Assembly: GCA_050084515.1 (NCBI GenBank) | Contig: CM114271.1 | Coordinates: 2,976,001 to 3,040,000, forward strand | Direction: 5' to 3' | Source: Blasia pusilla | Taxonomy: Eukaryota | DNA length: 64,000 nucleotides | Shown: in pieces, positions 7,330-58,130 of the stretch | How positions within the stretch are numbered: the first letter of the stretch is position 1 | Layout of the letters: the number at the start of each line of letters is the position of its first letter | Program-made: the position numbers and the translations under genes | The notes under the pieces: generated by a model | Told to the model about the DNA's origin: nothing | The model's database searches: none | What the model saw: the letters and a program-made list of their open reading frames with translations, nothing else

Positions 7330-8160
7330 TGCAATATAGGGTTAGATAAATGAACCCGCACCCTAATGAAATATAAGGTTAGATAATCTTAGAAACACTA
7401 CTCCATAAACCACATGAGTCATATTACTATAACTCCTCGACGTCTAAATCGGAACCATCAATCTAGGCTTCTACTCAAATAAGGAAGCCGATTAGATTAA
7501 TGATGATGAGAGAAGTGGATGTTGAGAATCCAAAACCCCCTCTCAATATCCACTCTCATGTGGACTAATGTCTTGGACCAATCTCAAGACCCTTCATATG
7601 TCGTTGAAGTTGATCTCAAGGCTTTGGTGAAGATGTTCGCACATTTCTCCTCTATTGGACAATAGACTAACTTCAAAACCTCTCTCTCGATCAACTCACG
7701 AATAAAATGATATTCAATCTCTATGTGCTTTGTACAAGTATGAAATACAGGATTATGTGATATGGCAATGCAACTTTGATTATCACACGACATTATAGTA
7801 GCATTCTGGTGCTTCTCCTATGTCCTCCAATATCCATCTCAACCATACGGCTTCACAAGAAGCATAATAAGCCGCCTCACACTCAACCTCTGTAGAAGAA
7901 AGAGCCTATGTAGGTTGGTTCTTGCTGATCCATGATACCACACCTGATCCTACCAAGAAAGAATAACCCAAAATAGATCTTCAAGAATGTGAGTCTCCTG
8001 CCCAATCCGAGTCACAAAAGGCTGTCATTTTTGTCCTTGCTCCGTAGGTGATGCCGTACTTGATAGTGCCTTTGATGTACTTCAACACACACATCCCTGT
8101 CTTCCAATGATTCTCACGAGGCTTAGTTGAGAGCCTACTCAACACTCCTATAGAAACCAA
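7330..8160 (-). mobile_element. Ty1/Copia 3' fragment: RT C-terminus, RNase H, polypurine tract and partial 3' LTR
   Basis: Minus-strand translation gives 'FCDSDWAGD', 'CDNQSCIAISHNPVFHTCTKHIEIEYHFIRE' and 'ANIFTKAL', typical Copia RNase H motifs. A polypurine tract (TTGAGAGGGGG, ~7536-7546) precedes sequence matching the LTR start at 62126. Confidence 0.9.
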
Positions 8161-37559: not shown

Positions 37560-40500
37560 TAGACATTACACCGTAATGAAAGATCTACATCGCCTTCCGT
37601 AATTTCATCTTCAGAAACCACTTCCATGGAAACATGGATGATAGGGACATTGTGAATATCTCTATTTGCAATCACCAGCTCCTCATCTGTGAGCTCTATG
37701 GCGCCGATAGTGTTTGCTTGTGGTATCCTATGGGGCATGGCTTCCAGGTGATTGAGGCCAATGGAATGGACCTGATCTGGGTTTCCACCATCAAAGATAT
37801 CAGAAATCACCCAACGAGATCTAGCCTCTTTCCTCACAACTACATTACATCCACTTCCCCTCATTTGCATCTCCAAAGAAAACTTGTTCCACTTGAGATG
37901 GGAACACAAAGGGTTGGTGGTCCACTGGCTCACATGATCGAAGATTCACGAGTAGCAAGTCTTCACGATCTCGCTGCATTGAGGGCATGCGAGAGTCCCA
38001 ATCTGCCCTCACCCACCTCCCTCTCATTAATATTATAGGTCTATCTAAAATCCCATAATCAAATGCAAGAATATCAACTAGGACTCCCACATATGAATAG
38101 GCACAATTTTGGTCCTCCTTCTTTTCATCCAAAAACATGGCTCCAATTCCACTATCATAAGTTGAATATGCATTCCATCCACCCTCTCCCTCTACTCTGA
38201 AGTGATTTCCATAAGCCTTCATAGACTTATATGATTTTACTTTGGGTTGCAGAGGGGTTGACGAGGCCAATGCCTCTTCATCCACCTTCCCATCATTCTC
38301 CCTAACATCTTGAAGGATGGCTGGTCTAATCCACTCTTGGAAAAGAATTGATGCCCTCTCCCTTTCATCTTTGTGGAAAGGAAGAAAATAACATCACCAA
38401 TAAATAGGGTGGCCTTGAAGATTAGAAAAAACAATAGGATTTAGGATAAAAGTTGATTATACTTGGAGAATGAGGTGACTCATTGAAAATGTACATGTGC
38501 CATACAACCATGGCCTCAATATTATGTAAGACATAATAGTGTGCCAAGAGTAGCATCTCTCGAGATAATCAAACTTTCTATCCTACACCTTCCAACTCTT
38601 CACCTACAACTCCTTCTTCTTCACTGTCATCCCAAATACGGGTCCTCAAATGCTCAAAGCTCTTCATATACTCAGTAACAAATCCCAATGCCTCATCTTT
38701 GACATACCCCTCACAACAAGCTTTACATCTCACATATTTTTTCGAAGTACCCATGTATCTTTCCATCACATACATCCATCAGCAATCTAATGGCTCACAT
38801 ATATCCAATTCTTTGATTACATGGATTAAGAGATGTGTCATCACATCAAAAAAGGATGGTGGAAAATGCATCTCTAAGAGACATAGGGTTATGACTACAT
38901 CTTGATGCAACTGTTGATAAGATGTAGGATCATACACTAAATATCTTGCTCAAGCGCATGACTCTAGAGCGGACTGACTCCTTCATAAGGCCGCGGAGGG
39001 CAAAAGGAAGGATTTGGTGAATGAGCACATGATAATCATGTGACTTCATGTTACCCAATTTTTGTTTTACCACATGTTTCCTTAACTCCCCACTATACCC
39101 TGTTCCGCACTTTCAAAAACTCAATCCTAGACAATAGTATGCTCAGATCTTGAGGTGATAAAACATAATCACATTGAGGTTTCACTAGTCCTTGAGCCCT
39201 ACTTGGATGTGGCTGTAACCACAAGTAAGGTCGAGTTCCACGAGCCTCCATATCTCTTCTACACTTCACTATATCCTTCATACCAAGCATAGTATTCACC
39301 ATGTTCTCACATATGTTTTTTTCCATGTGCATAACATCTAATGTATGTCGAATAAGAATACGCTAATCTTATGTTGAGGAAAATAGATTCCACCATGAGA
39401 ACTAAACTTCACATAACACATAATATGAACTTTTGCAAATATAAATGGATCAAGTGGATACTCTCCAATATGGCAAATCAAACAAAATACTTCGTCGCTT
39501 CACCCTTGTTCTCTTGTAAGGATCATTAGGAGCATCATCTCATCCCCAATGCTCCTCATATATTCTTTTTTCTTGGGCCCATCTTAGAATGTGATCAGCT
39601 GTAACCCTCTGAGGTGATACTTTAGATTCCCCTAAGCCATTGAATTGGGATCCATAAGCTCTCCCTCTCCAAGCATGCTCTAATGGAAGGTGTATATGAT
39701 GACAACCAAAAATAGGCTTCCCGCATTCCTTGGAGAAGTTTGAATTCACATAAGGTCCAAATTTTGTACATGCAAGTTTCCCACCATGGCTTTGCCCTGA
39801 GATTGTGCCATATGCTGGATAATCATTTATAGTCCACACGATCATGGCTCTAAACTTAAACTCCATCTCTCCCAAAGGTCTTCGGACATCAATGAAATCT
39901 ACCCCATTCCATAACTCCTTAAACTCATCCACTAAGGGAGCTAGGTATGTGTTGATATTCTCTTGATTCACACTCTCCTTACCATGAATGATTAAAGCCA
40001 ACATGACAAAGAACTTCTTTGTTTGAAGCCAAGGTGGAAGGTTATAGTTCACTAATAGGACTGGCCATGTTGACCATGAACTGGCCTTATTGGAATCGGG
40101 GTTCACACCATCAAGTGCTAAACCAAACCTATAATTTCTACTCTCCATTGCAAAATCAAGATACAAACGATCGATATGATCCCAAGCCTTGTTGTCTCCT
40201 ATATGTCTAACCATGCCATCTTTGGTTTTGTTATCAAAAGACCAAGTCAATAACTCTGACAAAGCCCTGCATCTATACATACACTGCATCCTAGGGATAA
40301 CAAGGAAGTGTCTTAAGACCTTGTTTGGTACCAAAGACCTTCCTTCTTTCTTAAACCTAGAATTCCCACACTTTGGGCATGTATCTACCTCTTCCAAGTC
40401 CCCACGAAAGAGAACACATCCTCTTGGACATGCATGGATAGAGTTGTAGCTCATACCAAGGTTACTGATAAGTTTATTTGCTGCATAGTATGATGGCAGC

Positions 40501-41150
40501 ACAAGATTATCAGATGGGAGTACCATCTTAGGTAAAAGTTTCAAAATCTCATCAATTGCAATGTTCGGAACGCCTTGGGTAGCACCAATATTGAAAATGA
40601 GCATGACAAAAGAAAGTAAGGATGTCTTAGCTCTTGTGAAGAGAGGCTTGCATGATGCTATAAGGTCATGGAAATTAGACTCCATACTCGGATCAGATGT
40701 GGCATTAGGGTTAAGATTCTCAACCCTTTCCTCTTCAATGATGCCATCCTCATCATGGATCTGATGATACTCTCTGAATATATCATGGAGCATTTGAGGA
40801 ACATCAATGTCAACATCCAAACGAGGATTTTCATGTTGAGAGAAAGTAGGAACCTGCTTCGATTTTATGATCTGTTCACGTTGCTGCTTCTCATTGCTCT
40901 CTTCATGTGCCAACCACTCCTTGTTTGATGAGTCCCACTCTTCCCTACTTTTTGGGTCTCTACATAGATGAGATCTCCCATTTTTCCTCAAATGCTCTTC
41001 CACGTTGCCCTATCCCAAGGAAGTCCCACCCTTACACTCAATACAAGGGCATCGAGCCCTCTTCCTTCCCAATGTACGACACTTCGTACATTCCCTTTTC
41101 CACAACTTGTAGTCATGGATTCTATCAGGATGGCTTATATCCATTTGTAT
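37560..41150 (-). pseudogene. CACTA TnpD transposase (Transposase_21/DUF4218/DUF4216-like), interrupted
   Basis: ORF 39540-41003 contains IHACPRGCVLF..CPKCG, ALDGVNP, STWPVLLVNYNLPPW and WTINDYPAYG. Downstream fragments include DVMHMEKNICE, KSHDYHVL, FPPSFFDVMTHL, WMYVMERYM and QPFVFPSQVEQVFF. Confidence 0.92.
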
Positions 41151-43024
41151 GCAAGTAGTTCTTTGTGGTATCATGATCTAGCTCACTCATAATTCTTCAA
41201 CAAAAAACCTAGATGAAAAATTCAAAAACTCCTGGTTGGCCTAAATACTATCACAAGTGCCAAGTCCCACTTCAACTCACAAAATTGGCTTCAAACGAGA
41301 AGACCTACCAAGTTGCTCTACTCCAACGCCACCAAATAGGGCCACAACAAAAATGAGCACAACAAGGGAAAAGTCTACCACTCAGGTTCTCCCTACAAAA
41401 GCCTGTCGCCATGCATATCTTCTCGTCATGTAGTCTCTCCATCCTCACATATGAGTACTAAAATCTGACGCTATATGCTTTTCTAGAATAGGAAATAGCA
41501 GCATGGATAAGAGCCAATGCCTTCCTCAAACTTGGTGAGGAATCCTCACCAAGAACTATGTCATCTGAATCATGGCAAAGATGAATGGTAATGATGTCTG
41601 CAACATCCATCATCAGCCAAAGAATGATGGAATAGCGATCCTCATGCCTACATACAAAATCGGAGAAGGTAACATATAGATGGCGCACCTTCGTATGAAA
41701 GCACCAATTCTCTACTCGTTTGTGCCAAGTCAAGTACCAATAGTGGCGTGCATGTAAGCTACATATCATGACTTGCAATTATGAAGGGAGACGTTGGATG
41801 TGTTGGACCAGCGTGCGCACTCTTTGGTTACCATGTAAGTATTCGTGGATTTCAATACCTAGATCAGGTATTGGCTGGCCATGTGTGTTCATCCTTCACA
41901 TAAAAAGCAAAGCCCTTTGAATAATACTTTTACTCCTTAGGAAATCTGGATGGCCAAATGACTTGTCCACTTCACAGCAGTCACTCTAAATTTTCTCTCC
42001 TTCAATAACCTGTTAGATAACATACAATCAATGGTTCATGATCTGCTTTTAATGGTTCTGTTATAACATTGTGAATTGCAACCAAGTAGAATTATCTAAA
42101 GCAACCAGCTACTAGTTTTGGTAGATCTTTAATCTTCTGAAGTGACAGATTTTAGCTTTAAATCAACACACTAATCCATATTTGAGATCACTAGTGTATG
42201 TGCATACAACTATAGTAGTATAAAGCATTCTACTAGTTCAGGAGTATAACAACTCAATTCAGCTAACAGCTCCTCTAGTTCATGAATGTAGACCCTAAAC
42301 CATTATGATACAAACTCAATTGCCAAATTACCGACAAACTTTCTTGCAAACACGAAAATTCTGATTCATCCTTGCAAAGAAAACAAGAATCCCAATGTGG
42401 AATACCTTTGTTGTTTTTGTCTCCTAGTGTGAACGCAATGTTTGTTTAAACCATTGAGGAGTTGTTGACATTAGGAAATGATAGCAAAGAGTTGCGTTCT
42501 CAACATATTCAAAAGTTAGGCATTGAGCAACGAAAGCTACGGTTGATGGAACTTCAATCTAAAATCCAGGATGAAGTTAAAGAGAAGCAACAAGAGATTA
42601 TGGCTATGGGAGAAAGCGCCAATTTGCAAGTTTGCCCATCTGTGTGAACGGCAATGGGCAGATCTCGCCAGGCATGTCATGATGATGCAAAAGAATTAGA
42701 GAGAAATGTTGCGCACCAATGTCGTAATGTGGCTTGTCAACTTGCTCTACCTGATTGAGGTGTGAGTTTAGTATCTAGTTCTTTAGCCCCTTCATTGACT
42801 GGAACCTGAGTATTGGCCAAACCAAAAAAAGACAGTTCACAAGTAGCAGGATTATCTGTGAGAATACCTTCTACTGGGAAGGAGGGAGAAGCCCTAGTGA
42901 GTAGGGAGACAAAGAAGATCCAAAGTCACCCATCTACTGTGGATGCCAACATTCTTAACCAACAAGATAAGTCACAATTGCCTTAGACTTGACTTTCTAT
43001 ATCTATTTGGTCAACCGGAACTAA

Positions 43025-44518
43025 AGGTCTGTGAATTCATGGCGAGGCAGAATCATGTTCAGATTGCTAAGTTTCTACATATTGCTAGGTAAAATCACAC
43101 GGCACTAAAGACCTCTCAGATCCTTGTTGTTTCCGGTACTTTCTTTTCAAACAGTTGTGATTTTTTCCAAACCTTAGTCCTATTGCCATGTGGGATCCCC
43201 GTGCACACTATCTCTATTCATTCATTTATTAATTCTCGTAGGTAAATTAGAGAGTGTTTTGAAGAGCTTCCTGGTCGACACTTGGAAGCTCTACACCAAG
43301 TGTATGGTCAGAACTCATACTATATGAGAGTGTGTCCCTCCTCTCATATGGTACCTTCTTCACTTGTTAATGTCTGCACCCATCCCAGTCTCAACAACAC
43401 TCAAACCAAGGGCCCAAGTCCATGGTGACAAGGCTACTGCAAGCACTACTTAATGAGTTGTCTCTCTCTGAAAAGTTTCGTCATGCATTATAGCTAGATT
43501 TAGGTAGAAGTCAACTAACCTTGAGATTGAGAAAGAGAAATTCTTATAGAAGAAAAGAGAGGACTGGAAAGTGTGGCTGATATATGTAGTCTCCATGTCT
43601 TCTATCTGATACATGAAGCTCTATTTCATCATATATGCCGGTTACACATCTCTGTCTAGGCGCTTCCGTCAATTTGTCATCACCCTATTTAAAGATCCAT
43701 CACATTCATTTCTGCATTATAGCAGCTACAACAGTAGCAAGTGCAACAAGAGAACCAGAAGTAGCATGTGCAACAACAACAAGAGGAGCTACAACAGCTA
43801 CAGGAAGAGCAATTGGTGCAACAACACAAAGTGAGGGCACAACAACATCAACAAAAACAACAAGGAGCCGAGCAACAATCTTCAAAACAGAAACAACAAC
43901 ATCAACCAGAACCACCTCTCCAAGAGAGCATGGGATTTACTAGGCATCAACTTGAAGGTCTGTGAATTTGTGGCTAGGCAGAATCATGTTTTGATTGCTA
44001 AGTTTCTACATATTTGTGTGAAGACTAGGTAAAATCACATGGCACGGTACCTTGCTTTTATTTCTTTTCAAACTGATGTAATTTTTTCAAAACTTAAGTC
44101 CTATGGCCATGTGGGATCTCCGTGCACAATATCTCTATTCATTCATTCATAAATGCTCCGAGGTAAAGTAGATAGTGTTTTGAAGAGCTTCCTGGTCGAT
44201 ACTTGGTAGCTCTACACCAAGTGTATGGTTAGAACTCACACTATATGAGAGTGTGTCCCTCCTCTCATATGGTACCTTCTTCACTTTTTTTTCCTGCACC
44301 CATCCCAGTCTCAAGTACACTCAAACCAAGGGCCCAGGTCCATGATGACAAGGCTACCACAAACACTACTTAATGAGTGTCTCTCTCTGAAAAAGTTCCG
44401 TCATGCATTATAGCTAGATTCAGGTAGAAGTCAACTGACCTCGAGATTGAGAAAGAGAAATTCTTACATAAGAAATGAGAGGATTAGAAATTCTGGCTGA
44501 CATATGTAGTCTCCATGT
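43025..44518. repeat. Dispersed direct repeat, ~570 bp (43025-43598 and 43955-44518)
   Basis: Both copies run from 'aggtctgtgaatt' through 'gaagagcttcctggtcga' to 'atatgtagtctccatgt'. Confidence 0.9.
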
Positions 44519-44569: not shown

Positions 44570-45105
44570 TTTATACAACATAAGCAACTCTTACAATAGC
44601 ATCAACAACAACAGTTGTTATAGCTCCAACATCATAAGAAGATTTTACAACAAAAATAACACCAATTACAGTAGTAGCAGCAATTACAGCCATACTAGAT
44701 GCAATAGCAAAAACACCAACAACAGGAGCTACAGTAGCAGAAGCAACAATAGCAACAACTTTTACTTCAGCAGCAGGAACAGTAGTAGCAATTGAAGGCA
44801 AAACAACAACAAAATCAACAAGTAGCCCAATAGCAACTTCTAACAACAACAAAAACAACCACCACCACCAAAGATTTTACAACAAAAACAACACAATTAC
44901 AGTAGCAAATGCAACAATAAAAACACCAGAAGCAAGAGCTATAGCAACAAGAACAACAACAAGAACAACAATAGCAACAAGTTAGAGCTGATAAAAGTTG
45001 TTGCTATTGTTGTTGTTGTTGTTGCTATTGTTGCTAATGTTAACAAAGTTGTTGCTATTGTTGCTATTGTTAACAAAGTTGTTGCTATTGTTGTTGTTGT
45101 TGCTA
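44570..45105. repeat. (CAA/AGC)n-rich tract followed by its complement (TTG)n, forming a foldback
   Basis: 'aacaacaatagcaacaa gttagagctgataaaag ttgttgctattgttgtt', centred at ~44988. Confidence 0.8.
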
Positions 45106-48100
45106 AGAAGCAGATCTACTCTTACCTTGTTTACTTCTTAATATGCAACTTATGGTTGTGTGGTATATTTGTAAAATCTGTGCTGCCCTTCTGAATCCTG
45201 AGTATCGAAATTGGAAATACATCTTGCCAAAATTGGTGAATACATCTTGCCAAAATTGTGGCTGCTTCCAAGAGTCGTATTGTTTTACTACAAGAAATCT
45301 GAAATGTAGAGACATACTTGTGGATGCAAGCTACAAATGCATCATGAAATTACTGTACACCTACTCTAAAATTTCAATCGGGCCAATTCTCAAGTCCCTA
45401 ATAGTAATCGATCCTTATCTTATTTCCGGCTCTATTGTAAACACAACACCACAATCAAATTCCTATCCTCCACGAGTTCATACCCTAGTGTTTGGAGAGA
45501 TCTCATCTCAGGGAGATGATTTTTATAGGACATTGGTGGAAATGGAGAGCTACCACCAACAAGTTGCAAATCCTTCTCTTTCTGCGCAATGATGCCAGCG
45601 ACACCCACAGCTCAAAATCCCAATCTTCAAATCTCCCTCCGAAATTGCAATCTGCAGCTGCTTCCAATGTCTCACTCCTAAACCCACTCTTGCTTAGTCC
45701 AACTTGTGCTCTCCTAAACTGGCATGCTCTCTCTTCCTAGAGCCTTTGCTCTATGCCTTAGGCGATCAAATGCTCCTTTCTCTGCCGCCTTTGCTCGCTT
45801 CCTTGGCTCTAGCGACCTACCTCCGAAGCTCCCTCAAAAACTTAAGTCCTTGGCTGCTTCCAAGAATCAAAGCTCCCTAAAAAACTCTAGTGTGTGGCTG
45901 CTTCCAAGACTTGATGTTGCTCGAAAACTCCAATGTGCGGCTGCTTCCAAGACAATGACTCACTCCTAACCTGGATTTGTGCCTCATCCAACTCCTGCTC
46001 ACCTAAACCCGTGCGGTCTCTATTCCTCGAGGCCTTTGCTCTCTACCTTAGGCGATCGATTGCTCCTTGATCCCCCAACTTTGCTCTCGGTCTTGATCCT
46101 TGCCTCAATCCTGCCCTCTAGGTTAGCCTTGATCTTGATTTAGTTTTGGTGTAAACAATAGTTCTTCGGATCGTGCCTTAGGAACTCCTTCTTCAGAGTA
46201 TAATCAAATTCTTTCCTTTTCCTTAGTGAAAATCTCTCTAAGCTTTCTTAGTGAAGGAGGAAAAAAATATTATTATTATTATTATTAATCTAAAATCCAT
46301 GTCATCTATCATTAACTCATAATCTAAACTCACATGACTTAAAATGACTAAGGAGGAATCCAAAGTTATTCAATGATTCAATCTTATTCTTATATGAGAG
46401 AAATAGTATAGCTTTATGCTTTAAAATGACTCAATAGTTTGGAAGTCATTTTGTGATATGACTCAGCTATACGTCCAATTTCTACAATGACTCGGTCATA
46501 TTGCAATAAGATTACACCATAACAAGTTGATGGAAAGATATGACTACTATATGACTAGTGGGCATTATAGTCATACATGCTAGCGGCGTAGGGAAGTGAA
46601 GTGAAGTAAAGTGAGGAGGCAATTGGAAGTTCACTTCCCATTCCGCTCTTCAAATGTGGGTCTTCTCTACAAGGAGGTGGAGAGGAGGAAGGAGGTAATC
46701 GGAACTCTAGTTCATTCCCCTCCTGAATTGTGGTGTGTCTTCTCTACAGGGAGGTGGAGATGACTGGAAGGAGGCAATCAGAATTCTAGTTATGATTCCG
46801 CTCCTCATTTGTGGTTTCTCTTCAGAGAGGTGGAGAGGATAGTGAGGGAAATCACAACTCAAGTTTTGATCCCCTTTGGAGGGGCCCAAGAAGTGGGGTC
46901 GGCGTGACTCTCAATTTCAGCACGGCGTTCAGAGGAAGGAGAGGAGAATAGGAAGTGAAGTTCCTATTCCGCGGCCTCTCAAGCGGGGCGCGGCTCTTCT
47001 TCTAGCGTGGCGAGGGAGGAAGGAGAAAGAATTGGAACTGTAGTTCCAAACCGCGGAGTGTCAAATGGGCGCAGCTCTCCCTACCAAGGTGTGGCACGGC
47101 GTGTGAAGCAGAGAGGGAGGAGTGAGCAATTGGAACTGAAGTTCCAATTGCGTCATTCTTTTGTGAGGTCAGGAAGGAAGGACTGAGCCAAGAGCATTCG
47201 GAACTGAAGTTCAATGCAACACTCTTTCAGGCAAAGGATTTTCAGACGTCCAAGTTATGGGCAAGTTGGCAAAGAGGCGCAACAATCAGAACGCAACTTC
47301 CCATTGGGATCAATCCGTCACCCTTCTCTATCCCGAGGTAGTCTCTTTCGGTGAGGGCGAGAATCGGAACTGAAGTTCCAATTCCCACCTTGGTCTCCCC
47401 TTAATCCGGAGTTTGTAGTGCGGCGCGAATCAAAACTAAAGTTCCCATTCACATGTGAGTTTGACATAGCAAAGCGTGGCAGAGAAGTGAGTGGGAGGCA
47501 AGGTGGGTGAATCACCGGTATTCTTGGTGTTTAGAGGCTTCAAAGGTGCGAGTACGTGGGCGTGAGAGGCGTCAAAGGCGTGAGGCGCCAACAAGCAAGC
47601 TCGCTGGCGGGCGTTAGGACTTGGCAAGCTGATGCTGATCCAATTCAGCATAACTTCCAAGTCACCCATCCCTGTTCTATTCCTCCAGAGTGTGCTTAAT
47701 TGGAGAGTTCTTTTGCATGTTGTGTTACCAACACACCCACAAGGAAGTGTTGGCAAGTTATTGCACACAAGGGGATTTATTCACTTACCTTGCTGCTTAT
47801 GGAGATGTTTGAGGGGTGATTTTTGGGTGACACACATTGTGGATTAGTGCGTTGGTGAGTGTACGGCACTACCGCGACTATTGTAGAGAGCTTGGTGGGA
47901 TGAATGTATACCACACAAGTCGGGAGTGACTTAGTGTGCGGGCTATTTGCCGAGTGTTGATCTCAAGTGAGATAAGTGGGGACGTGTCCAAAATTTGGGC
48001 ATTGTCTAGTGCAGAGCTAGTGGCTCGGGAGTAAGTAATAGTAGTTTGCAGGTTTCACCACGACGCATCCACCGAGTATTGGGGAGCGTGGTAGTGGTAA

Positions 48101-50960
48101 AAGTGGCAGAGGATTTACATGGAGTGGGGCTAGGTATCGAGGGTTTCTACATGAGGAACCACCTTAGCCGCCCGTTGAAGTTACTCTAGAGGTGATGTCA
48201 GCGGATTCTGAGTTACCTGAGAGGCCACGGAGTGTCGTGAGTGTCGCCACACGGTTGTTGTGGGACATGGATGATCGCAATACGTGTCTACAAGGGGACT
48301 CCGATGGTTCTCAAGCATGGTGGGAACCATCGAGTTGGATGATTTTATGGAGGAGTTTGATAGTTGGTGCAATGCATGGAGGACGCGGAATCAGCAAATA
48401 GTCGACCCCTTTATGGATTGGAAGGGACTTTTTCAGCATTTGGAGAGCCCTCCCATGGATGATTATCATGAGTTTTGAATTCTCCATGAGGCGGAGATCT
48501 AGGCGTGGAGACTATTTTGGTCTCCAAGATATGTGTCTCTCACAAGGCGTGCGATGTATTATATGGCGGCTGCAGTAGCACCCACTAACCGCACGGAGGA
48601 GACACTTGGAGGAGTTGTCGACCTGAGTCTTATGAGTATTACCAACCAGGTACCACCCGTGTTCAACCCCTTGGTTGAGTTCTTCCGAGAGTTGGGGAGG
48701 AACGCTCAGGGGGTGAGGACCGACAAGCTGAAGTCGATTCATGAGTTCCAGCGGAGAGCGGGAGACTTAGGGTTGATCACAACGACTCAGGAGTGTGACG
48801 GAGGTACAAGCGGTGTAGTTCTGGTATGCAATGCTAGACCGTGAGTTTCGGAAGAGAGTGTGACATGCAACTCTCTTACATGTTGGTTTTCCTACTCTCA
48901 AGTCTATATTTTTGTTGGCGGAGCGGATTGAGATCAACTTACTTGAGGAGAGAGTTTTGACGACATGCGTGTCATCTTCAAGGGAGACGACACAAGTGAC
49001 GGTATCTCCATCAATACCGCAGCGCACTACTTGAGATAGAGTCATGGGACCGAGGGCTACGGGAGCATGGGCCACGACCAGTTCAGTCATACGCTTGGCA
49101 GCAGGGCTCACATATTTCTTGTTGGACGTGTGGAGGATCACATTGTCAGTGAGATTGTAGACAACAAAGTGGAGAGCAGGCAGCACCAATAGTTGTTTAT
49201 GATGCGGCCCAGGGGAGGCCACCCTTACCTTCGTGTGATCATTTCCAAAGATATGGGCGCACACGTGAGAGATGTTTCAAGCTCCACCCCAAGCCCTACG
49301 CCTAGAGGGAGGTCGAGGATCTGGAGGTGGCAGAGGACGAGGTGTAGAGGGTCGAGGACTTGGTGGAGGCAGGACCCCAACACCTTCTTGAGCGAGTGCA
49401 ACACTTGCATCATAGGCAGCTTTGGCGAGGATTTCTCAGTTGGAGCAACGCTTTTAGGCTATTACGGCCTAACATGCATCTACTTCACGTGCAAGGGGCG
49501 CGTCGACTTTTGGATATGATCATGCCCTTGATATGGCGGTAGATCTAGGAGGTATGGGATTTTTGTGCAATAGCGCACAAGTGGATCCACATGCAGTGGT
49601 TATGACACGCGCGGTGAGTGCTTCTGAGCCACAAGGATCCGGTGTGGAATTGGATTCCCAGGGGGGAGAAGCTAGTAGGCAGGCTAGACTTCCCCAATCT
49701 TTCACATTGTCATAGGCCCTTCACACCCCATTGATGGTCCCTAGACAGCCTTTGAGGAGCGTTGTTGTCGCATATGCCAATGTTCTTAGAGGAGCGGGTG
49801 AGGCAAGTACGTCTACTAGGCCTATGCAACATTCGACACCGCCTAGCACTGGCATGTTACGAGAGATGGAAATGGCTTTGTATAGCATCCCACTATTCAC
49901 AGTCAAAGATTTGTTGATTGTTTATGGTTGGCGGTTCGATAAACATACGATACGAATGTTTATTGGTTGGCGGCGATGCTCTATGAGAGCGATGAGTTTG
50001 GTTCTTCTAGTGTTGAGACTTGCACAAAAGATGTGGCACAGGCATCCTTGGAGGAGGTGCTCGGGATGAGGCCCAGAGATAGTTGGCAAGCAGCAGCGGC
50101 TAGAGTGGCGGAGTTGCTAGCTAGACCTGCTATAGAGTGTGCAACTGTCTCACCAAGAGTTGTTGTGTTGGACAACCGAGATGAAGTTTTCCAGTTGGTT
50201 GGTCCATCCGGAGTCGTGTATCGATCGTAGAGAGTGCGACTTGATTCAAGAGCACAACCCCTTATGTTGGGGAAGGCAACCTATGTAGCGATGGGATTGC
50301 GTAAGTGTGAGATCACTCCATGTCCATTCCAGATTCAGACTTCACTAGGAGGCACATTCCCGACACAGTTCATGACTTGCAATGAGATTGCAGTGAGGAT
50401 TCGGCCCGATCATCTTACGGATAGCGCGATGGTGCGGACGCGAACGATTGTGACACCCACCGAGTCTTATAATGTTTTGGTAGGGGCAAGGGTATTGTAT
50501 CCTCTAGGGTTCACACTTGACTTTTGGGAGGAGACAACCTCCTATCAACCAGATTGGTAGTCATGTGAGGGACGAGCCAGTCAGCTACCCCTGCAGTATG
50601 CACGGAGACTTGATAATTCACTCCAAGGGTCGACCACAAAAAGTTGCTGCTTATTGTGGCACATTATGTTGGATTGGAGATTAAGTGGAGGGGAACTGCA
50701 ATGTAGAGGATATTGTTGTAGAGGATAGTGCTAAAGAGAGGCATGCGATGACGAGCATGGCTACATCTATTGGCGATACTTCTTCAGCTTTGTGAGGGAC
50801 GAGCATCGATTTGCAGAGGAGAGTAGATGAGCTCGTGAGGAAGACATGGAGCCGAGCCTATGCTCTAGAGCAAGACGGGACAGAGTTACCACCTGCTCTA
50901 GGAGTGGAGACGTTGATAACCTTGGACACCACACCGATTGTGTGGCAGTATCCCGAGGAG

Positions 50961-51910
50961 GGTGTACATAAACTTGATGTCTTTGGAGGGATTAGAACAT
51001 CATTGGGTGCAGTGTTGCAAGCCGGAGTACAAGTATAGTAGTACTTTTATGTTGAGAGAGATGAGATTGCATGTAGAGTCTCATTACATCATGTGTTGAG
51101 ACTAGTCCAACAGTATCCTCAATTATTGCCAGTGTCTACGGTCAGGGGATATCAGCATTTATTTAAGGCGGACATTTTGTTGTTGGGGGCGCCAGATATG
51201 GATAGGGTTGGTCCGATACACTTGGTGGTGGCAGGGTGGCCATGTCATGGTCATTCTTTGGCGGGTCGGGGACTTGGTTTGCAAGACCCGAGGTCGGCTA
51301 TGTTTTGGGAAATATTGCGAGTTCTATGATGCTTGCAGACTACCCGGCGATGTTCTCTAGCTTAAATTTTGGAGAACGTCCCATTGTTAGGTGACACTTG
51401 AGCGTGAGTGATGGCGAGTGTAATCAAGTGCGGTCATGGATAGGATCGGCAGTGATGTTGGTTGCGGCGAGTATTGGATTGCGCGCACACCGTCCACGAT
51501 TGTGGTGGATCAACCTTTTACCATATGAGTTACTCAGACAAGCTCATGATGGAGTCGAGAGACCATCACTACTTACAGTGGATGCAGTCTTGGATCCAGA
51601 GCGGCGAGCTTAGGTTGTTACTTGTAATGATGTACCACCGTTGGCAATGGCCAATCAGGTGGACCAACAGAGGGCATCATTGCCTACGTTGGTGAGTTTC
51701 TTGTCATCTCATGTTTTTTTGTTAGGGAGGACCAAGCATGATATGGGATGAGCAAGCACGTACACAGGTGGAGCCCAACGCCGACGAGCGAGAGGGAGCT
51801 ATGGGGTTCTCTATAGGTACAACGGGGGTGCCTATGATGCATATTGCAAAGGCATCCTGCATACAAGTATTGGGTCAGGCTATGGACTTGAACTATCTTA
51901 CTTGGGTGTT
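50961..51910 (+). pseudogene. C5-cytosine DNA methyltransferase domain (DNMT3-like motifs) embedded in Gypsy pol
   Basis: Motifs in canonical order: I 'LDVFGGI', II 'YVERDE', III 'ADI', IV 'LVVAGWPC' (PC at 51240-51245), V 'DPRSAMF', VI 'ILENV' (ENV at 51372-51380), VIII 'AHRPRLWWINL', IX 'EREGAMGF', X 'LGQAMDL'. Confidence 0.9.
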
Positions 51911-54900
51911 CAGAGGTGTGGCTAAGCAGCAACGGATGCAAGAGGCATCTGTGACATTACGTCCACTTTACAACGCAGCGTCTATCGGGACGGGTAAGAC
52001 TTTGGTTGGGGGCACAATGGTAATGGAGAGGCATCCATGGAGTTCATGGGACATGTCACGAGAGCATAGAGTGATGGGAGGTCATTTTTTTTATGCAAGA
52101 CATAGTGGAGTGCCTATAGAGTTGGTGTCTGATTTGGGAGCTCATGTTGCTACTCCAGAGGTTGCTAGTTAGCAGCCACCACCCTCTTCTTCTCCAAAGG
52201 TCATGAGAGAGACTTGGGAGCCGGTGATCGGTCCTAGGTTGACAGGAGCGAAGAGGAGACAAGTGTTGCAGTTCTTGTGGAGATTCACGGACTGCTTTGC
52301 ATATAGTATGCACAACTTGGGTACAGTACAGGGTCCAAGTAGTCGGATCGAGTTGGATAATGATACACCTATCTTCCGAAGATCCTATAGGTATTCTGAC
52401 ATGAAGCAAGCCTTGATTCAGAGTAGGAGTCGAGACTTGGCTGACGCTGGACTGGTGGAGAGATCACTCGGAGAGTATGCATTTGCCACAGTTATGCCGA
52501 CAAAGAAGGACATGCATAGCCCGTGGACTCATAGGCGGATGTGTGGCAATTATTGTCCGATCAATCGACATACAAAGGCCGATCGCTATGCTATGCCTAC
52601 TCCCGAGGAGATCTTTGATACGGTGGGGCATGCAAGGATCTTTTGTTGTTTGGATCTCTGTGTTGGCTATCATCGTTGCCCATTCGAGTGGAGGACAGAG
52701 AGAACACAACATTTTGGGGGATAGATCCTTTCGGGAAGGATTGTTTGTACCACTGGCGGTTCTTACCATTGGGATTGAAGAACGCCCCTACGGGTTTTCA
52801 GCAAGTTACGGATAGGATTTTGGCTAGTTTGGATTATGCGAGATGTTACATCGATGATATTATCGTCTTCATTGCCACGGTTGAGGATCATGAGAGACAT
52901 CTTGAGGAGATGTCTCGACGATTGCATTAACATGGGCTGAAGTTACATCTAGGCAAGTGCAGGTTCTTCCATGACCAGATCGAGTATCTTGGACACACCA
53001 TTAATCCACAAGATATTGGAGTTTAGCTGACAAAGGTGGAGGCCATAGTGCGCATTCCCCACCCTAAAAATGTGAGTCGAGTTTGAGTTTTCATGGGATT
53101 GGCAAACTACTACCGACGGTACGCTAAGGGTTTTAGTATAATTGCGAAGGCACTCGCTTTGCTGACTAGGTTGGACCAAGAGTGGTTTTGGGGAGATGAT
53201 GAGGAGCAAGCATTTCAAGAGCTCAAGGACATGTTGACGTCCTCATCCATTTTGAGGAGACCTTTGCATGGTCGTCCGTTCCAGTTACATACGGAATTAA
53301 GTATATTGGGGTTAGGAGGGGTGCTCACTTGGAGAGATTATGAGGGGAAGGAGTTCGTAGTGGCATATGCAAGCCGCTCGAACAATACTCCAAAGGCAAA
53401 GTATAGTTCCTATGAGGGGGAGTGCTTAGCTGCAGTGTGGATAGTGGCCCATTTCAAATGTTATTTGTTCGAGAACCCTTTCATGATCATCACTGATCAT
53501 CAGCCACTCTAATGGTTGATGGAGTGTGACAAGCTTACAAGGAAGCTTGCCAGATGGTCACTCATGTTGCAGGAGTATGATTTTCATGTTGTCCAGCGCC
53601 CAAGACATCTGAACCAGGATGCAGACAGGTTGAGCCGTAACCCATGCACGAGCGTAGTGGCATGGTGAGAGTGATGAGGAGATGGTGTTGGGTTGGCATC
53701 CATATGCCTATTTGTGTTTATTGGCTATGTCAGGTCAGTATGAGGCATCCGTTCCAAGAGGGATATTGGATGGTGAGTTCTCAGATCCAGATGCTCATGA
53801 GGATTTGAAAGGGACTGGAGACATCCACGGCGATGAGATGGTCTTGGAGTACCTGCGCACTAGTGTCTTAGCAAGCACGGTGAGTGCTAGAGAGCGGGAT
53901 TGAATCCTACAGCGAGCCAGAAGGTTCAGGTGGGAGAGGACGCATGTGCTTCGAGTTTGGGAGGATGGAAAAGTGCGGATGGTGCTGCATCCTTCGCAGC
54001 AAGCACAAGTTGTGAGACATGCTCACAAGGAGTCAAGCGTACGTATAGCTTGATTTAGATTCAATATTGGTGGCTTGGTATGCAGACTGATGTTCATAAG
54101 TTTGTAGCTAGATGCATTGTATGTGATAGGATGAGGGCATCGTTCAATGCTCCGACACCACACTTCCACCGATTACCGATCATGGCATTAGGGTGTTGCT
54201 GGAATTTAGACTTTGCATGGCCTTAACCATTGACGGGATGCCATAGTTGGTATGTGTTGGCCATGATGGAGCACTTATCCAAGTGAATTGAGTTGGTAGC
54301 ATTACCGGATAGATCGAGTGAGGGAGTGGCTTATGCATTTCTTGATAGAGTGCCTAGTCATTTTGGCGTACCAACAGAGGTGTTGACGGACCAAGGTAAT
54401 GAGTTTAGGGGTGACTTTTTGGCCTTGTGTGATCAGACACTGATAGATCATCGTACAACTTCTCGAGATCATCCGGAGGCAGATGGTTTGGTAGAGAGAG
54501 TTGTGTAGACGGTGAAGAGAGGATGCGTAAGTATGGACTGCAAAGAAGACAATTGGGAGATTAGGATGTACAGTTGCTGTAGTTGGCGATGGGTTACCGC
54601 TTTAGTCGGCAGGCATCCTTGGCAGTATTTTCACGACATTTCTTGCTCTATGGGAGAGAGCCAAAGTTACCATCATCGATTTGACAAGATGTGGTTGAGG
54701 TACTTGACCTTGATGATCCAGACATATGGGTGCGAGTATATTCTCAACGGGCTGAGCTCTTTTAGAGAGTCATGCCTATGGCGTTTGAGAACCTGGCTAT
54801 CGCTCAGCATCATGATATTATGAGGTACGCGACTACGTGTGGAGGAGGCTATCGACGAGGGATTTGGAAATTGTATCATGGAAATTATGTCTACCTACAG

Positions 54901-55099
54901 TAGACAGCGCCGACGACATTGGACATGATGGCCAGACACACTATTCTGCAAGTGCGACATATTTTACCTTCAGGAGTCATTATTCTAGAGGGCCGTGATG
55001 GTATCGATTGGAAAGATCATGTGCATAACTGTGCACCATGTCTCTTCTCAACATAGATGGGAGCATTGATTTGAGCTTGGCAATTGTTCCTGCAGGCTT

Positions 55100-55238
55100 A
55101 AGATGCATGTTGTGTGGATCTGCCAGAGGCACAGCCACGATGCTAGTTTGTGATGGGTGTTCTCGAGGATGGCATATATCGTGTTTGACGCCGCCTCTTG
55201 ACTTGGTTCCTCAAGGACATTGGCTTTGTCCCAGATGA
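55100..55238 (+). pseudogene. PHD finger at the integrase C-terminus
   Basis: CMLC...MLVCDGCSRGWHISCLTPPLDLVPQGHWLCPR* fits the C4HC3 pattern with the conserved W. The last Cys position is now a TGA. Confidence 0.88.
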
Positions 55239-55409
55239 ACATAAGCGTGACAGATAGATACAAGATGACTCTTTATGTTATGGATTGCAGGAAGGTGACT
55301 ATCAATGGGGCGACATAACATCCGACCTCCTCATCTTAGCACCAAAAATATGCATAGCATTTAGGCTTATTTTTTAGGCTATCTGGAGTTATAAGGACCT
55401 AACCACCAG

Positions 55410-55530
55410 CTAGGGGGACGATTGTCAAGTCATTCATGTGTAGAGATGTTAGGATTCATAGCTAGATGGATCTTAGACATGTGTGTGCATGACAACCGAT
55501 GTATGTTGGCATTGATGTGTATTCGCAAGA
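55410..55530 (+). mobile_element. Putative polypurine tract and start of the Gypsy 3' LTR; this ~105-bp start recurs at 56169-56271
   Basis: 'agggggacga' is followed by TGTCAAGTC. A near-identical block 'tgtcaagtc.ttcatgtgtagagatgttagg...gtgtattcgca' begins at ~56169. Confidence 0.55.
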
Positions 55531-57079
55531 AAACCATCATGGTAGATGAGATGTAGGGCGAGATAGTATTGAGGCCTTAAAGGGGTCTTGTACTTCCCTA
55601 TTTTGAGAGGTCATATGTGACCTACTCTTAGGAGGTGACCTACGAGTGTAGGTCACTCTTCCCTTCATGAGGAGTGGCAACCTTGGAGAGGTTGACCTTC
55701 CCAACCATGTATGGCTCCACTTGGACCTATAGGGTTGTGGGTTAGTTGGTAGTTGGTCTCATGAGAGGACCACATGTATAGTTGTTAGGGAGCTAGTATG
55801 GATGTACTATAGGTTGCTAGTGACCTGCTAGGAGGGATGTTTCCTGTGAATACATGTCAACCATGGAAGTGCCCATGGGGGTATACCTCGGATGAGGCTT
55901 ATTTGGAGCTCATCTCATTAGGATTACAGACACTTGTTGGGATCCGTGATACAACGCGGCTTGCATGTATTGAGCCTGGATTCTCTCTTTAAGAGTGGGC
56001 TAGGAGTGATCAATAAGGAGATCACATATTTTGGGAATCCTTGTGTATACTTTCTTTTGGTGTTACAACAGTGTGTATCAAAATCATGAGTATGGTTGTT
56101 TGGATGAAGCACGATTGATTACAGATTTCATCAAAGCTTACAGTGCGTATTCCACTTTATATTGGGGTTGTCAAGTCGTTCATGTGTAGAGATGTTAGGA
56201 TTCATAGCTAGATGGATCTTAGACATGTGTGTGCATGACAACCGATGTATGTTGGTAGCGATGTGTATTCGCACAAAAAAGGGCTTAGATTTACTCGTGA
56301 CAAGCGGTCTACAAAGTCCCTACAATGCAAAATCTCTTTTCGGGGCAACAATTTTATTTGCAATATTTGCCGCCTTGTCCACATTCTTTGAATGAAAATG
56401 CCTTAACATACAAAAAATCATGGCGATCTATTAGCATGATGACAGCAAAGTGGAACTAGCATCCACGCTCTTGAGAGAGCCCAAGGCATGTGCTTTGGCT
56501 TTGTAGCCTACTACCCTTGCCCCCTTTGAGATGAATGTTAAAAGCAAAGACCTTGTTTGGCAATGAGGTCCAAACCGACATTCTATACCCATGCAGTCCC
56601 TATGTGCACGAGTATCGAATAGTGATATTGTTGTGTCCACATTAATCAGTCTTACTATTTTAGAAAGAAGTATGGAAATATGGTTTATGTTCTTCATCAT
56701 GGATAAAGTCATTCGCCCTTTTTGTTGGAATTCATGCCTCTTTTTTGTGACCATACCATGTCAAATATTCACTTTAGGAAAGGTGGAGGCAAGGGGTTCT
56801 AGATAACATCACATTCTAATGCACGGGAGTCTTTTTTGTACTTCACCATGAAGACAGACCATAATGGTATTTTGAAGAGCTTTGATAAATTGCAACCAAA
56901 GAAGAAGACAAGAATGCCGTGAGGTAAGTGTTTTGAAGAAAAAATTAAGAGAATTGCTCATATCATGAGCATGTGGATTACTTAGTGTGATTCACAAATA
57001 AATTATGCATGCGGGTCAAGTAGAGATTGATGTGGTGGTGATTTTGATGACTCATTGTGCTACAAAGTAATCAAGCCAT

Positions 57080-58130
57080 CGAGAGGTGGGATGGAGATTG
57101 ATTCACGAGAGCGGATCGGTGGGCGGTAGGCCAAGGTTCCACAATCTTTTAGGTTTTCAGAGGCCCTTCACGCACCATCGATGGTGCCTAGATGACCAGC
57201 AGTGCCCATAGGTGGTATAGATGCATCGATATCACGAGGAGTTGGAGGGACGACACATATGCTTGCTCGTGTGAAGTCAGTGTAGACCACGGTGTTGGAG
57301 AAGGCCACCTGGGTGAGCGAGACTCCTTTGTTTTCCGCCATGGAGTTGGCGACAGTAGGAGTTAGACCATCAGAGGTGTTCGAACTGGCCGTCATATTTT
57401 TTGAGCGTGTAGAGGTGACTACCTCTCATTCAGCGATGGTTGAGGAGATGGCGGAACTATCCTTGGACCACTTGCTCAAGACATCCTCCAGTGAGTCATG
57501 GCATGCTGCCGCGGCAAAGTTAATAGATATGCCAGCTAGGCCAGCAATAGAGCAAGCCATGGTGACGCTTGGTGGAGTGTTGTTAGATAATCGAGCTCGA
57601 GTGTTTTTCTTGGTTAGTCCAACAAGTACGGTGTACCACCCGCCGTGCATCCTACTTGATTTACGAGCAGAACCCTTGATGTCAGGGAAGGCGGCCTGTT
57701 TGGCATGGGGGTTACGGAAAGGCAACATTGAGCCTTGTCCCTTCTAGAAACAAACCTTTATTGAAGGCGTATCACCCACACAGTAGATGACTTCATTGGA
57801 GATTGTTGTTTGAGCGTAACTAGAGCATGTGATGGATAGTGCTATGGTGCGTACACGTGCAATTACAAGACCAGTTGTGTCGTACGATATGTTGGTGGGA
57901 AGTAGTGTCTGATATCTCTTAGGATTCATCTTGGATTTTTGGCATGAGGCGGTTGCTTATCGGCGAGGGTGGCAATCGTGCGATGGAAGGATGAGTCAGT
58001 TACCCATACAATTTACAAGATGAGGTGCTATACCGTGTAACAATTCAGTGACCACGTTGTAAACTTTCACATGTGGTGTTAGTTGGCCCGGAGTTCCTGG
58101 AGAGGAACACACATGCGCATGACACTTTGG
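57080..58130 (+). mobile_element. Second, truncated copy of the same Gypsy family (protease region)
   Basis: 'SWHAAAAKL..RPAIEQA..VLLDNR..VF.LVSP..LLDLRAEPLM.GKA..IEPCPF' parallels 50080-50560. Confidence 0.85.

Follow-up and report, generated by a model that had tools for sequence, protein, structure and literature searches.

A bryophyte family of Ty3/Gypsy-type retroelements with a DNMT3-like cytosine methyltransferase ahead of a conserved stop codon

Positions 48281-56279 (+ strand) of a window of 64,000 nucleotides from Blasia pusilla (contig CM114271.1 of assembly GCA_050084515.1, positions 2,976,001 to 3,040,000) very probably hold a dead copy of a Ty3/Gypsy-type retroelement. It belongs to a bryophyte family in which a DNMT3-like C5 DNA methyltransferase (DNMT) is a standing part of the coding sequence. 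Throughout, "the window" means this whole stretch of 64,000 nucleotides. Judging from related proteins and loci, the DNMT is a feature of the element family and not a one-off capture. The original prediction, made from the letters of the sequence and a list of its open reading frames (ORFs), had proposed an ancestral DNMT between protease and reverse transcriptase rather than a random insertion; the same placement recurs in several bryophytes and in many metagenome loci.

Translation of the three forward frames of 48.4-55.4 kb reveals a Ty3/Gypsy set of domains on the + strand. The Ty3/Gypsy Pol order of protease (PR), reverse transcriptase (RT), RNase H (RH), and integrase (IN) is present: RVT_1, RT_RNaseH, RT_RNaseH_2, Integrase_H2C2, and rve match both the window (scanned against Pfam with stops read as X) and L080, a nearly intact related locus. 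The DNMT lies downstream of the protease remnant (RLDSRAQPLMLGK at 50237-50275) and upstream of the RT motif YIDDIIVF (52847-52870). In the relatives P0002, P0006, and L080, the protease is matched by Asp_protease_2 or gag-asp_proteas, in all cases below the Pfam cut-off.

The motifs of C5 methyltransferases are found in order between the two. Five of them share one frame (start mod 3 = 0): motif I (LDVFGGIRTSLG, 50973-51008), motif IV (AGWPCHGHS, 51231-51257), motif VI (ILENVPLLG, 51366-51392), motif IX (EREGAMGFSIGTT, 51786-51824), and motif X (QVLGQAMDLN, 51864-51893). Motif VIII (AHRPRLWWINL, 51485-51517) is in a shifted frame (mod 3 = 2). These translations bear out the original prediction, which had the motifs ordered between protease and RT (including PC and ENV), the segments anchored at 50811, 51093, 51738, and 52203 in a single frame, and the motif VIII segment offset. 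With X at the stops, PF00145 matches 50802-51392 at 28.7 bits (cut-off 22; E = 1.2e-6), so the resemblance is not a chance one.

Relatives of this domain occur in PR-DNMT proteins. The 197-amino-acid stretch of the window with motifs I-VI matches six longer proteins (E = 3e-67 to 2e-37; 49-61% identity), and the best match is a protein of the liverwort Calypogeia fissa. PF00145 is precomputed for five of the six, and five pass the cut-off on rescanning. Across the nine related proteins that were scanned, PF00145 matches every one, eight of them at 31.8-46.1 bits and P0004 just short of the cut-off at 19.8 bits. It also matches both of the loci scanned (L046 at 49.0 bits and L080 at 46.2 bits). 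One of the proteins, P0011 (1319 amino acids), is a single ORF that combines Gag (with two CCHC knuckles), protease (LLDSGAQ), and DNMT, and P0027 from Marchantia (1248 amino acids) is likewise a single Gag-PR-DNMT ORF. In L080, Gag occupies 504-2609 and PR-DNMT occupies 2477-4663; a TAG follows, and then an ORF of 1047 amino acids in the same frame, which encodes RT, RH, IN, and a PHD finger. In L046, Gag-PR, DNMT, and RT are all in one frame, which two stops interrupt.

More broadly, when metagenomes were scanned with an alignment of the family, 155 stretches were found to encode a relative. Eighty were kept as loci, and most of these are decayed. The linker sequences that flank the DNMT can be aligned across copies on both sides. 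A profile search identified 313 proteins at E <= 1e-5, and the 120 of these that were listed include 15 from Marchantia polymorpha, 5 from Calypogeia fissa, and 5 from Sphagnum. (One listed protein is labeled as coming from a bacterial metagenome-assembled genome; this label is unchecked.) The original prediction had held that a DNMT is not part of the standard architecture of Gypsy elements in land plants. It is indeed unusual for land plants, but with at least 15, 5, and 5 matches from these three bryophytes among those listed, it is not rare in bryophytes. In a tree of 56 DNMT domains, in which the window copy was entered with an X at every break, this copy lies inside a clade of 11 rows with support of 100/100, together with named proteins from Calypogeia, Marchantia, and Sphagnum, L046, and P0002. 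The related copies all carry the DNMT at the same place. However, all of them were retrieved with the DNMT as the query, and sister elements without a DNMT would be invisible to such a search, which tells against our interpretation.

Several comparisons indicate which kind of methyltransferase this is. First, the order of the motifs is not permuted, unlike in DRM: motifs I-VI precede motifs VIII-X in the window and in all of the aligned relatives. Second, a DNMT profile of 27 members, compared to the sequences in PDB, ranks DNMT3A first (8.1e-23), followed by DNMT3C (8.4e-20) and DNMT3B (3.5e-19); DRM (9e-14 to 1e-9), HhaI (1.6e-9), and DNMT2 (4e-4) are weaker, and DNMT1 did not match at E <= 0.01 in this search. 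With P0005 alone as the query, the values were 6.9e-11 for DNMT3A, 1.3e-3 for DRM, and 0.01 for HaeIII/HhaI. Third, we compared an AlphaFold2 model of the DNMT domain of L046 (mean predicted local distance difference test score of 83) to known structures with Foldseek. The catalytic domains of DNMT3A, DNMT3B, and DNMT3C came first (best E = 1.5e-21, template modeling score to the target of 0.79-0.83, identity ~20%), and the entries listed (ranks 1-49) are exclusively DNMT3A/B/C. By sequence and predicted fold, then, the element's methyltransferase is DNMT3-like, as originally predicted; the basis is a ranking against solved structures and not a reference phylogeny.

Is the enzyme likely to be active? 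We examined conservation across 27 diverse members, whose mean column identity is only 24%. The Cys and Gln of motif IV (PCQ), the Glu of ENV, and the acidic residues (Asp and Glu) of motif IX are invariant, and the RxR of motif VIII is nearly so. An active enzyme would be expected to show such conservation. A rough Nei-Gojobori estimate of the ratio of nonsynonymous to synonymous substitution rates (dN/dS) between open copies is ~0.2, at saturated dS (proportion of synonymous differences of 0.66-0.82) and with two of the four comparisons giving no estimate. Alternatively, the DNMT might be kept as a noncatalytic module, for DNA binding, for multimerization, or as a decoy for host factors. A point in favor of this, and against our interpretation, is that KnitGypsy-Dnmt3, a DNMT-bearing retroelement from the charophyte Klebsormidium nitens, gave no de novo methylation in yeast, a result that the authors call inconclusive (PMC5890265). 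Given the invariance of the catalytic residues, we consider a noncatalytic role unlikely. We favor an active enzyme, which would most likely methylate the element's own complementary DNA (cDNA) or its insertion site.

The stop codon between ORF1 and ORF2

In the window, the ORF at 51726-52172 closes with a TAG (52170-52172), and the ORF for RT (52173-52724) begins directly after it in the same frame. The original prediction had noted this TAG between the motif IX-X segment and RT, which is correct, and had implicitly treated it as a break in a formerly single ORF, which does not agree with what is seen in the relatives. Among the 57 loci whose match extends to the last residue of ORF1, the next codon is a stop in 56 (TAG in 39 and TAA in 17), and is TAC in the other. 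For 53 of these 57 loci, the very next residues are in frame and form the N-terminus of RT (...ETWEPLIGPKLTG...). Likewise, the window's TAG marks the position at which the ORFs of P0001, P0002, P0005, P0011, and P0027 all terminate. These lineages have no more than 44-61% of their DNMT residues in common, and independent decay would not strike one and the same codon in all of them; this stop is native. From these alignments, we take TAG 52170 to be a conserved boundary at which ORF1 (Gag-PR-DNMT) gives way to ORF2 (RT-RH-IN-PHD) and not a lesion of decay. And because the conserved stop lies between DNMT and RT, the DNMT belongs to the Gag-PR frame and would reach Pol only via readthrough.

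The codons after the stop suggest how ORF2 is expressed. The TAG is followed by CAG CCA in the window, by CAA CCA in L046, and by CAA TCA in L080, all of which fit CAR YYA. In plant viruses, CAR YYA directly after UAG is described as the type I context for readthrough (PMC2754532, PMC11166343). Thus, on the match to this signal, the RT-RH-IN-PHD part is probably made by readthrough. Two observations weigh against this account of the stop. First, the signal is not uniform: the largest subfamily, which groups with Sphagnum proteins, mostly has TAG CAA CCC (in the Sphagnum-type loci, CAA CCC follows the stop in 49 of 57, and the full CAR YYA is found in only 1 of 57). Second, five distant members with the same domain order as the window (type A, see below), namely P0145, P0154, P0185, P0288, and P0289, have DNMT and RT in one ORF without a stop. 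We know of no report of a type I readthrough signal in plant long terminal repeat (LTR) elements, and we did not aim a literature search at that point.

These observations bear on two other explanations. The stop might be native, with Pol produced by splicing out the stop or by separate translation of ORF2 instead of by readthrough. Besides the departure of the Sphagnum-type context from CAR YYA, this explanation can draw on the Marchantia gene model P0032, whose predicted intron joins DNMT to RT and skips the tail of ORF1 along with the stop. However, that intron is an automatic prediction on a locus that contains the stop. Also, ORF2 is kept in frame right after the stop in those 53 loci, with no evident requirement for an ATG, which neither splicing nor separate initiation would call for. 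UAG CAR YYA is kept in three divergent lineages. We regard this explanation as improbable. It is even less probable, indeed very unlikely, that TAG 52170 is a mere decay mutation in what was once a single Gag-PR-DNMT-RT-RH-IN ORF: the window copy does have about 30 other stops and the distant type A relatives do lack a stop between DNMT and RT, but 56 of 57 loci, as well as L046 and L080, share a stop at the homologous codon, and the five related ORFs named above end there. As a separate observation, P0032 is not the only gene model of its kind: another one from Marchantia, P0063, has a predicted intron that links DNMT to RT and leaves out the ORF1 tail and the stop.

PHD finger, green-algal relatives, and possible function

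A PHD finger (PF00628, E ~1e-10) is conserved in the bryophyte-type elements and in green-algal relatives. It has the same position in L080 (in the region 7631-7765) as in four polyproteins with another domain order (type B): P0165, P0174, P0210, and P0224.

The two orders emerged when the profile was run against 1.84 billion representative proteins. It matched 6892 of them at E <= 1e-3; 1726 reached E <= 1e-10, and 457 reached E <= 1e-30. We assigned classes to the best 150 representatives by using phmmer with segments of L080, and we checked seven of them with Pfam. Among these 150, 21 are of type A, with the window's order of PR-DNMT(-RT...), and 75 are of type B, in which RNase H precedes and integrase follows the DNMT and there is usually a C-terminal PHD finger. 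Another 52 have the DNMT alone, and 2 have other layouts. The named type B proteins are from the chlorophytes Scenedesmus, Haematococcus, Monoraphidium, and Chromochloris, while a protein from Closterium lies inside a type A clade in the 56-domain tree. A quick tree was also made of 125 domains. One of its branches (95 by the Shimodaira-Hasegawa-like approximate likelihood ratio test) has the 72 type B rows all on one side, along with 21 unassigned rows but without any type A row. In the 56-domain tree, the Marchantia domains group with those from Sphagnum (100/95) and not with those from the other liverwort, Calypogeia, which points to old sublineages or to transfer between bryophytes.

As the PHD finger is common to types A and B, it suggests that the elements themselves are related across the two types, and not their enzymes alone. 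We can imagine a wider history, which is possible but on balance doubtful. There would be one ancient Gypsy-type superfamily across green plants (chlorophytes, zygnematophytes, mosses, and liverworts) with a DNMT3-type writer and a PHD reader on the integrase, and the writer would have changed its place in the polyprotein a single time, between two positions. Among the bryophyte members, the DNMT would sit in the Gag-PR frame ahead of a leaky UAG, be made at the abundance of a capsid protein, be packed into particles, and methylate the element's own cDNA before or at integration. If this is true, then whether the element-borne enzymes are related to the plants' own DNMT3 genes, in either direction, becomes a question.

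How might an intact member of the family work? Its plan would be a repeat (A1), ORF1 (Gag with two CCHC knuckles, protease, and DNMT), a leaky UAG, ORF2 (RT, RNase H, integrase, and PHD finger), and a group of repeats (B1-A2-B2). Most ribosomes would halt at the UAG and release Gag-PR-DNMT, while the type I context (UAG CAR YYA) would let a minority continue into ORF2 and produce the full polyprotein, as for the replicase of tobacco mosaic virus or gammaretroviral gag-pol. Because the DNMT shares the frame of Gag-PR and precedes a conserved stop of the leaky type, a high dosage is implied, and possibly packaging: the methyltransferase would be made at a Gag-like abundance and could enter the particle. 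There, or in the preintegration complex, its most likely role would be de novo methylation of the new cDNA or of the insertion site. The integrase's PHD finger probably steers integration via the tails of histone H3. What is observed is the order of the domains, the DNMT3-like sequence and fold, the conserved catalytic residues, the conserved stop in frame, and the arrangement of the repeats; the mode of expression and the functions proposed here are inferred.

Layout of the window copy and its surroundings

The features of the window copy, and of a second fragment nearby, are listed in Table 1.

Table 1. Remnants of the retroelement and of a related fragment in the window
Feature	Position	Strand	Evidence
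Gag remnant with two decayed CCHC zinc knuckles (49120-49143, 49234-49275)	48281..49930	+	tblastn of P0011 and L046 Gag-PR, 36-52% identity, frames 2, 3, 1, 3
Aspartic protease remnant	49958..50677	+	aligns with P0011 residues 582-822, 45% identity
DNMT part 1: motifs I, IV (PCH), and VI (ENV); 6 in-frame stops	50802..51421	+	PF00145, 28.7 bits; 60% identity to L046 DNMT
DNMT part 2, shifted frame: motif VIII and variable (target-recognition) region	51422..51724	+	tblastn frame 3 -> 2 at 51422; 54-56% identity to L046 and P0011
DNMT part 3, first frame again: motifs IX and X, ORF1 C-terminal tail	51726..52169	+	open stretch of 148 amino acids; aligns with P0011 residues 1174-1318 (end of the P0011 ORF)
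Native ORF1 stop with context TAG CAG CCA (UAG CAR YYA)	52170..52178	+	comparison with 57 related loci
RT and RNase H, one frame change near 52680	52173..53668	+	RVT_1 E 1.4e-20, RT_RNaseH E 1.3e-28, RT_RNaseH_2 E 7.6e-26; 61-70% identity to L046
Integrase, decayed: H2C2 zinc-binding domain, catalytic core, C-terminal region	53978..55041	+	Integrase_H2C2 E 2.3e-9, rve E 1.5e-8; 52-54% identity to L080 Pol
PHD finger at integrase C-terminus	55104..55235	+	PF00628 E 2.1e-10, 40.9 bits
3' split direct repeat: B1 55422-55533, A2 55534-56167, B2 56168-56279	55422..56279	+	B1 and B2 of 112 nucleotides each, 94.6% identical
Second, truncated fragment of a related element: Gag C-terminus and PR	57052..58089	+	aligns with P0011 residues 482-823, 38% identity, one frame, 10 stops

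The window copy is dead, as originally predicted, because tblastn alignments to near-intact relatives reveal 30 in-frame stops and 12 frame changes within 48281-55235, because its motif IV reads PCH where the family has an invariant PCQ, and because the DSG of its protease (in the remnant at 50237-50275) has become DSR. This copy itself is incapable of any of the steps proposed above. We also considered whether strand-specific decay accounts for the excess of G over C on its coding strand (skew of +0.21 for 48281-55235). It does not: the near-intact relatives L046, L062, L071, and L080 show +0.13 to +0.26, so the skew is a trait of the family and not a signature of decay.

Three related loci (L062, L065, and L071) have a complete A1...B1-A2-B2 layout in place of simple LTRs. 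In these, A1 (~340 nucleotides) is at the 5' end, A2 is ~8.5-8.8 kb downstream, and B1 and B2 (~115 nucleotides) are on both sides of A2. The sequence ahead of A1 varies between loci, while the sequence past A2 is common to them, as expected if B2 is part of the element. At its 3' end, the window copy has B1-A2-B2 only, in the same arrangement as in the relatives. The rest of what might bound the copy is missing, and this speaks against a complete element: a repeat finder and self-blastn searches with word sizes of 9 and 7 found no LTR pair in the window, these searches together with a search with the A2 region found no 5' A1 repeat for this copy, and no target-site duplication was found for it either.

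The heavy decay of the window copy, the lack of an LTR pair or a target-site duplication to bound it, and the second fragment close by (57052-58089) might suggest that a fragment or pseudogene of a host DNMT3 gene was captured once, inside a single Gypsy copy, or that a host pseudogene lies by accident between two element fragments, but such a capture is hardly credible and is already contradicted by the same PR-DNMT-stop-RT order, with homologous junctions, in named proteins from Marchantia, Calypogeia, and Sphagnum and in the 80 loci, and by the alignment of the linkers on both sides of the DNMT. The second fragment ends just short of where a DNMT would be expected to start and is uninformative as to whether one was present there.

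Some other observations concern the ends of these elements. The 3' end of the B repeat (...CGATGTATGTTG...ATGTGTATTCGCA), at 55500-55533 and 56246-56279 in the window, resembles 14570-14603 of L062 (Sphagnum-type loci), and may be a conserved cis element, going by this similarity. Outside this part, the repeats of the window copy and of the Sphagnum-type loci do not align. Imperfect tandem repeats with a period of ~75-150 nucleotides are found at 46614-47212, upstream of the Gag remnant and where the missing 5' repeat would be expected. The 5' region of L080 likewise has tandem repeats, of 144 nucleotides (127-414).

Elsewhere in the window, an open frame of 489 amino acids at 39543-41009 (- strand) encodes a CACTA-type tnp2 transposase (PF02992, E = 4e-56), and its nearest Atlas clusters are from streptophytes. 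A direct duplication of ~575 nucleotides (43024-43598 and 43955-44518) has copies that are ~920 nucleotides apart and ~91% identical. A microsatellite-like array rich in GTT/GCT, with a period of 9-12 nucleotides, lies at 44989-45122. Finally, 1-1069 is a GC-rich (50%), low-complexity stretch, both strands of which have long open frames with abundant Pro, Ser, and Leu.

Comparison with known systems

Retrotransposon-borne cytosine methyltransferases are known from dinoflagellates and from one charophyte alga. The family described here reaches Marchantia polymorpha, which is amenable to genetics, and Sphagnum, which is ecologically dominant, and the enzyme is thereby accessible to study in both. 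It also has a practical consequence: automatic gene models in Marchantia and Sphagnum name copies of the element as host "DNA (cytosine-5)-methyltransferase," which may inflate the DNMT counts in comparative studies.

The cellular enzymes DNMT3A, DNMT3B, and DNMT3C are the best matches by both sequence and fold. They have the same motif order (I-X) and the same pattern in motif VIII (AHRxR..W.NL). They differ in motif IV, which, judged from the alignment, is PCN in the cellular enzymes and PCQ in the elements. Pfam found neither a PWWP nor an ADD domain in the related proteins and loci that were scanned, and unlike the cellular enzymes, the element's DNMT sits inside a retroelement polyprotein.

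For the expression of Pol, the closest parallels are the replicase of tobacco mosaic virus (UAG CAR YYA) and gammaretroviral gag-pol. In these, an in-frame UAG lies between an abundant upstream product and a rarer extension that contains the polymerase. The parallel, seen in the window, L046, and L080, is so far one of sequence only, and the Sphagnum-type copies have CAA CCC. For the end of the integrase, the parallel is with chromoviruses, Ty3/Gypsy elements whose integrase ends in a chromodomain. The bryophyte family likewise has a chromatin-reader domain on the integrase C-terminus, but it is a PHD finger instead. The green-algal type B polyproteins (RT-RH-DNMT-IN-PHD) share the DNMT lineage (profile E-values down to 1e-80) and the C-terminal PHD finger. 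They differ in having a single giant ORF where the DNMT comes after RNase H and before integrase, in contrast to the PR-DNMT order of type A.

The dinoflagellate elements SymbioDIRS-Dnmt3 and SymbioLINE-Dnmt are also retrotransposons that encode a cytosine methyltransferase, and SymbioDIRS-Dnmt3 methylated CG de novo in yeast (PMC5890265). However, neither is a Gypsy element: one is a DIRS with a tyrosine recombinase and the other is a LINE. In the authors' view, their DNMTs were acquired independently (PMC5890265). As the original prediction had stated, such elements are described both from dinoflagellates and from a charophyte alga (PMC5890265).

The most similar element is the one from the charophyte, KnitGypsy-Dnmt3. 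De Mendoza et al. (2018) describe a retroelement whose domains are those of Gypsy elements and whose coding region includes a nonpermuted, DNMT3-related domain; this DNMT is under purifying selection (PMC5890265). The legend of their Fig. 4c gives its repeats as DIRS-like (A-coding-B-A-B) and its domains as Gypsy (PMC5890265). Going by this published description, it shares its Gypsy domain set and its DNMT3-related domain with the bryophyte family, and its DIRS-like repeats with L062, L065, L071, and the 3' end of the window copy. No K. nitens sequence was among the matches of our protein and profile searches with the DNMT. The hosts differ (mosses and liverworts, which are land plants, versus Klebsormidium), and so does the location of the DNMT: it is in ORF1 here, behind the protease and ahead of the conserved stop, whereas that of KnitGypsy-Dnmt3 is placed in the Pol ORF (PMC5890265). 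The main text on KnitGypsy-Dnmt3 does not mention a PHD finger, a chromodomain, or readthrough (PMC5890265).

This kind of element has thus been known since 2018 from Klebsormidium; later papers say only "streptophytes." We did not find a report of such elements in bryophytes, Marchantia, or Sphagnum, nor under the names of the gene models, in a search with incomplete coverage of subscription journals; the supplementary lists of DNMTs in PMC5890265 and PMC12344493 may include these Marchantia models. Relative to KnitGypsy-Dnmt3, what is new here is the land-plant hosts, a DNMT in ORF1 before a conserved stop of the leaky type, the PHD finger, and the split of one enzyme lineage between two positions across green plants.

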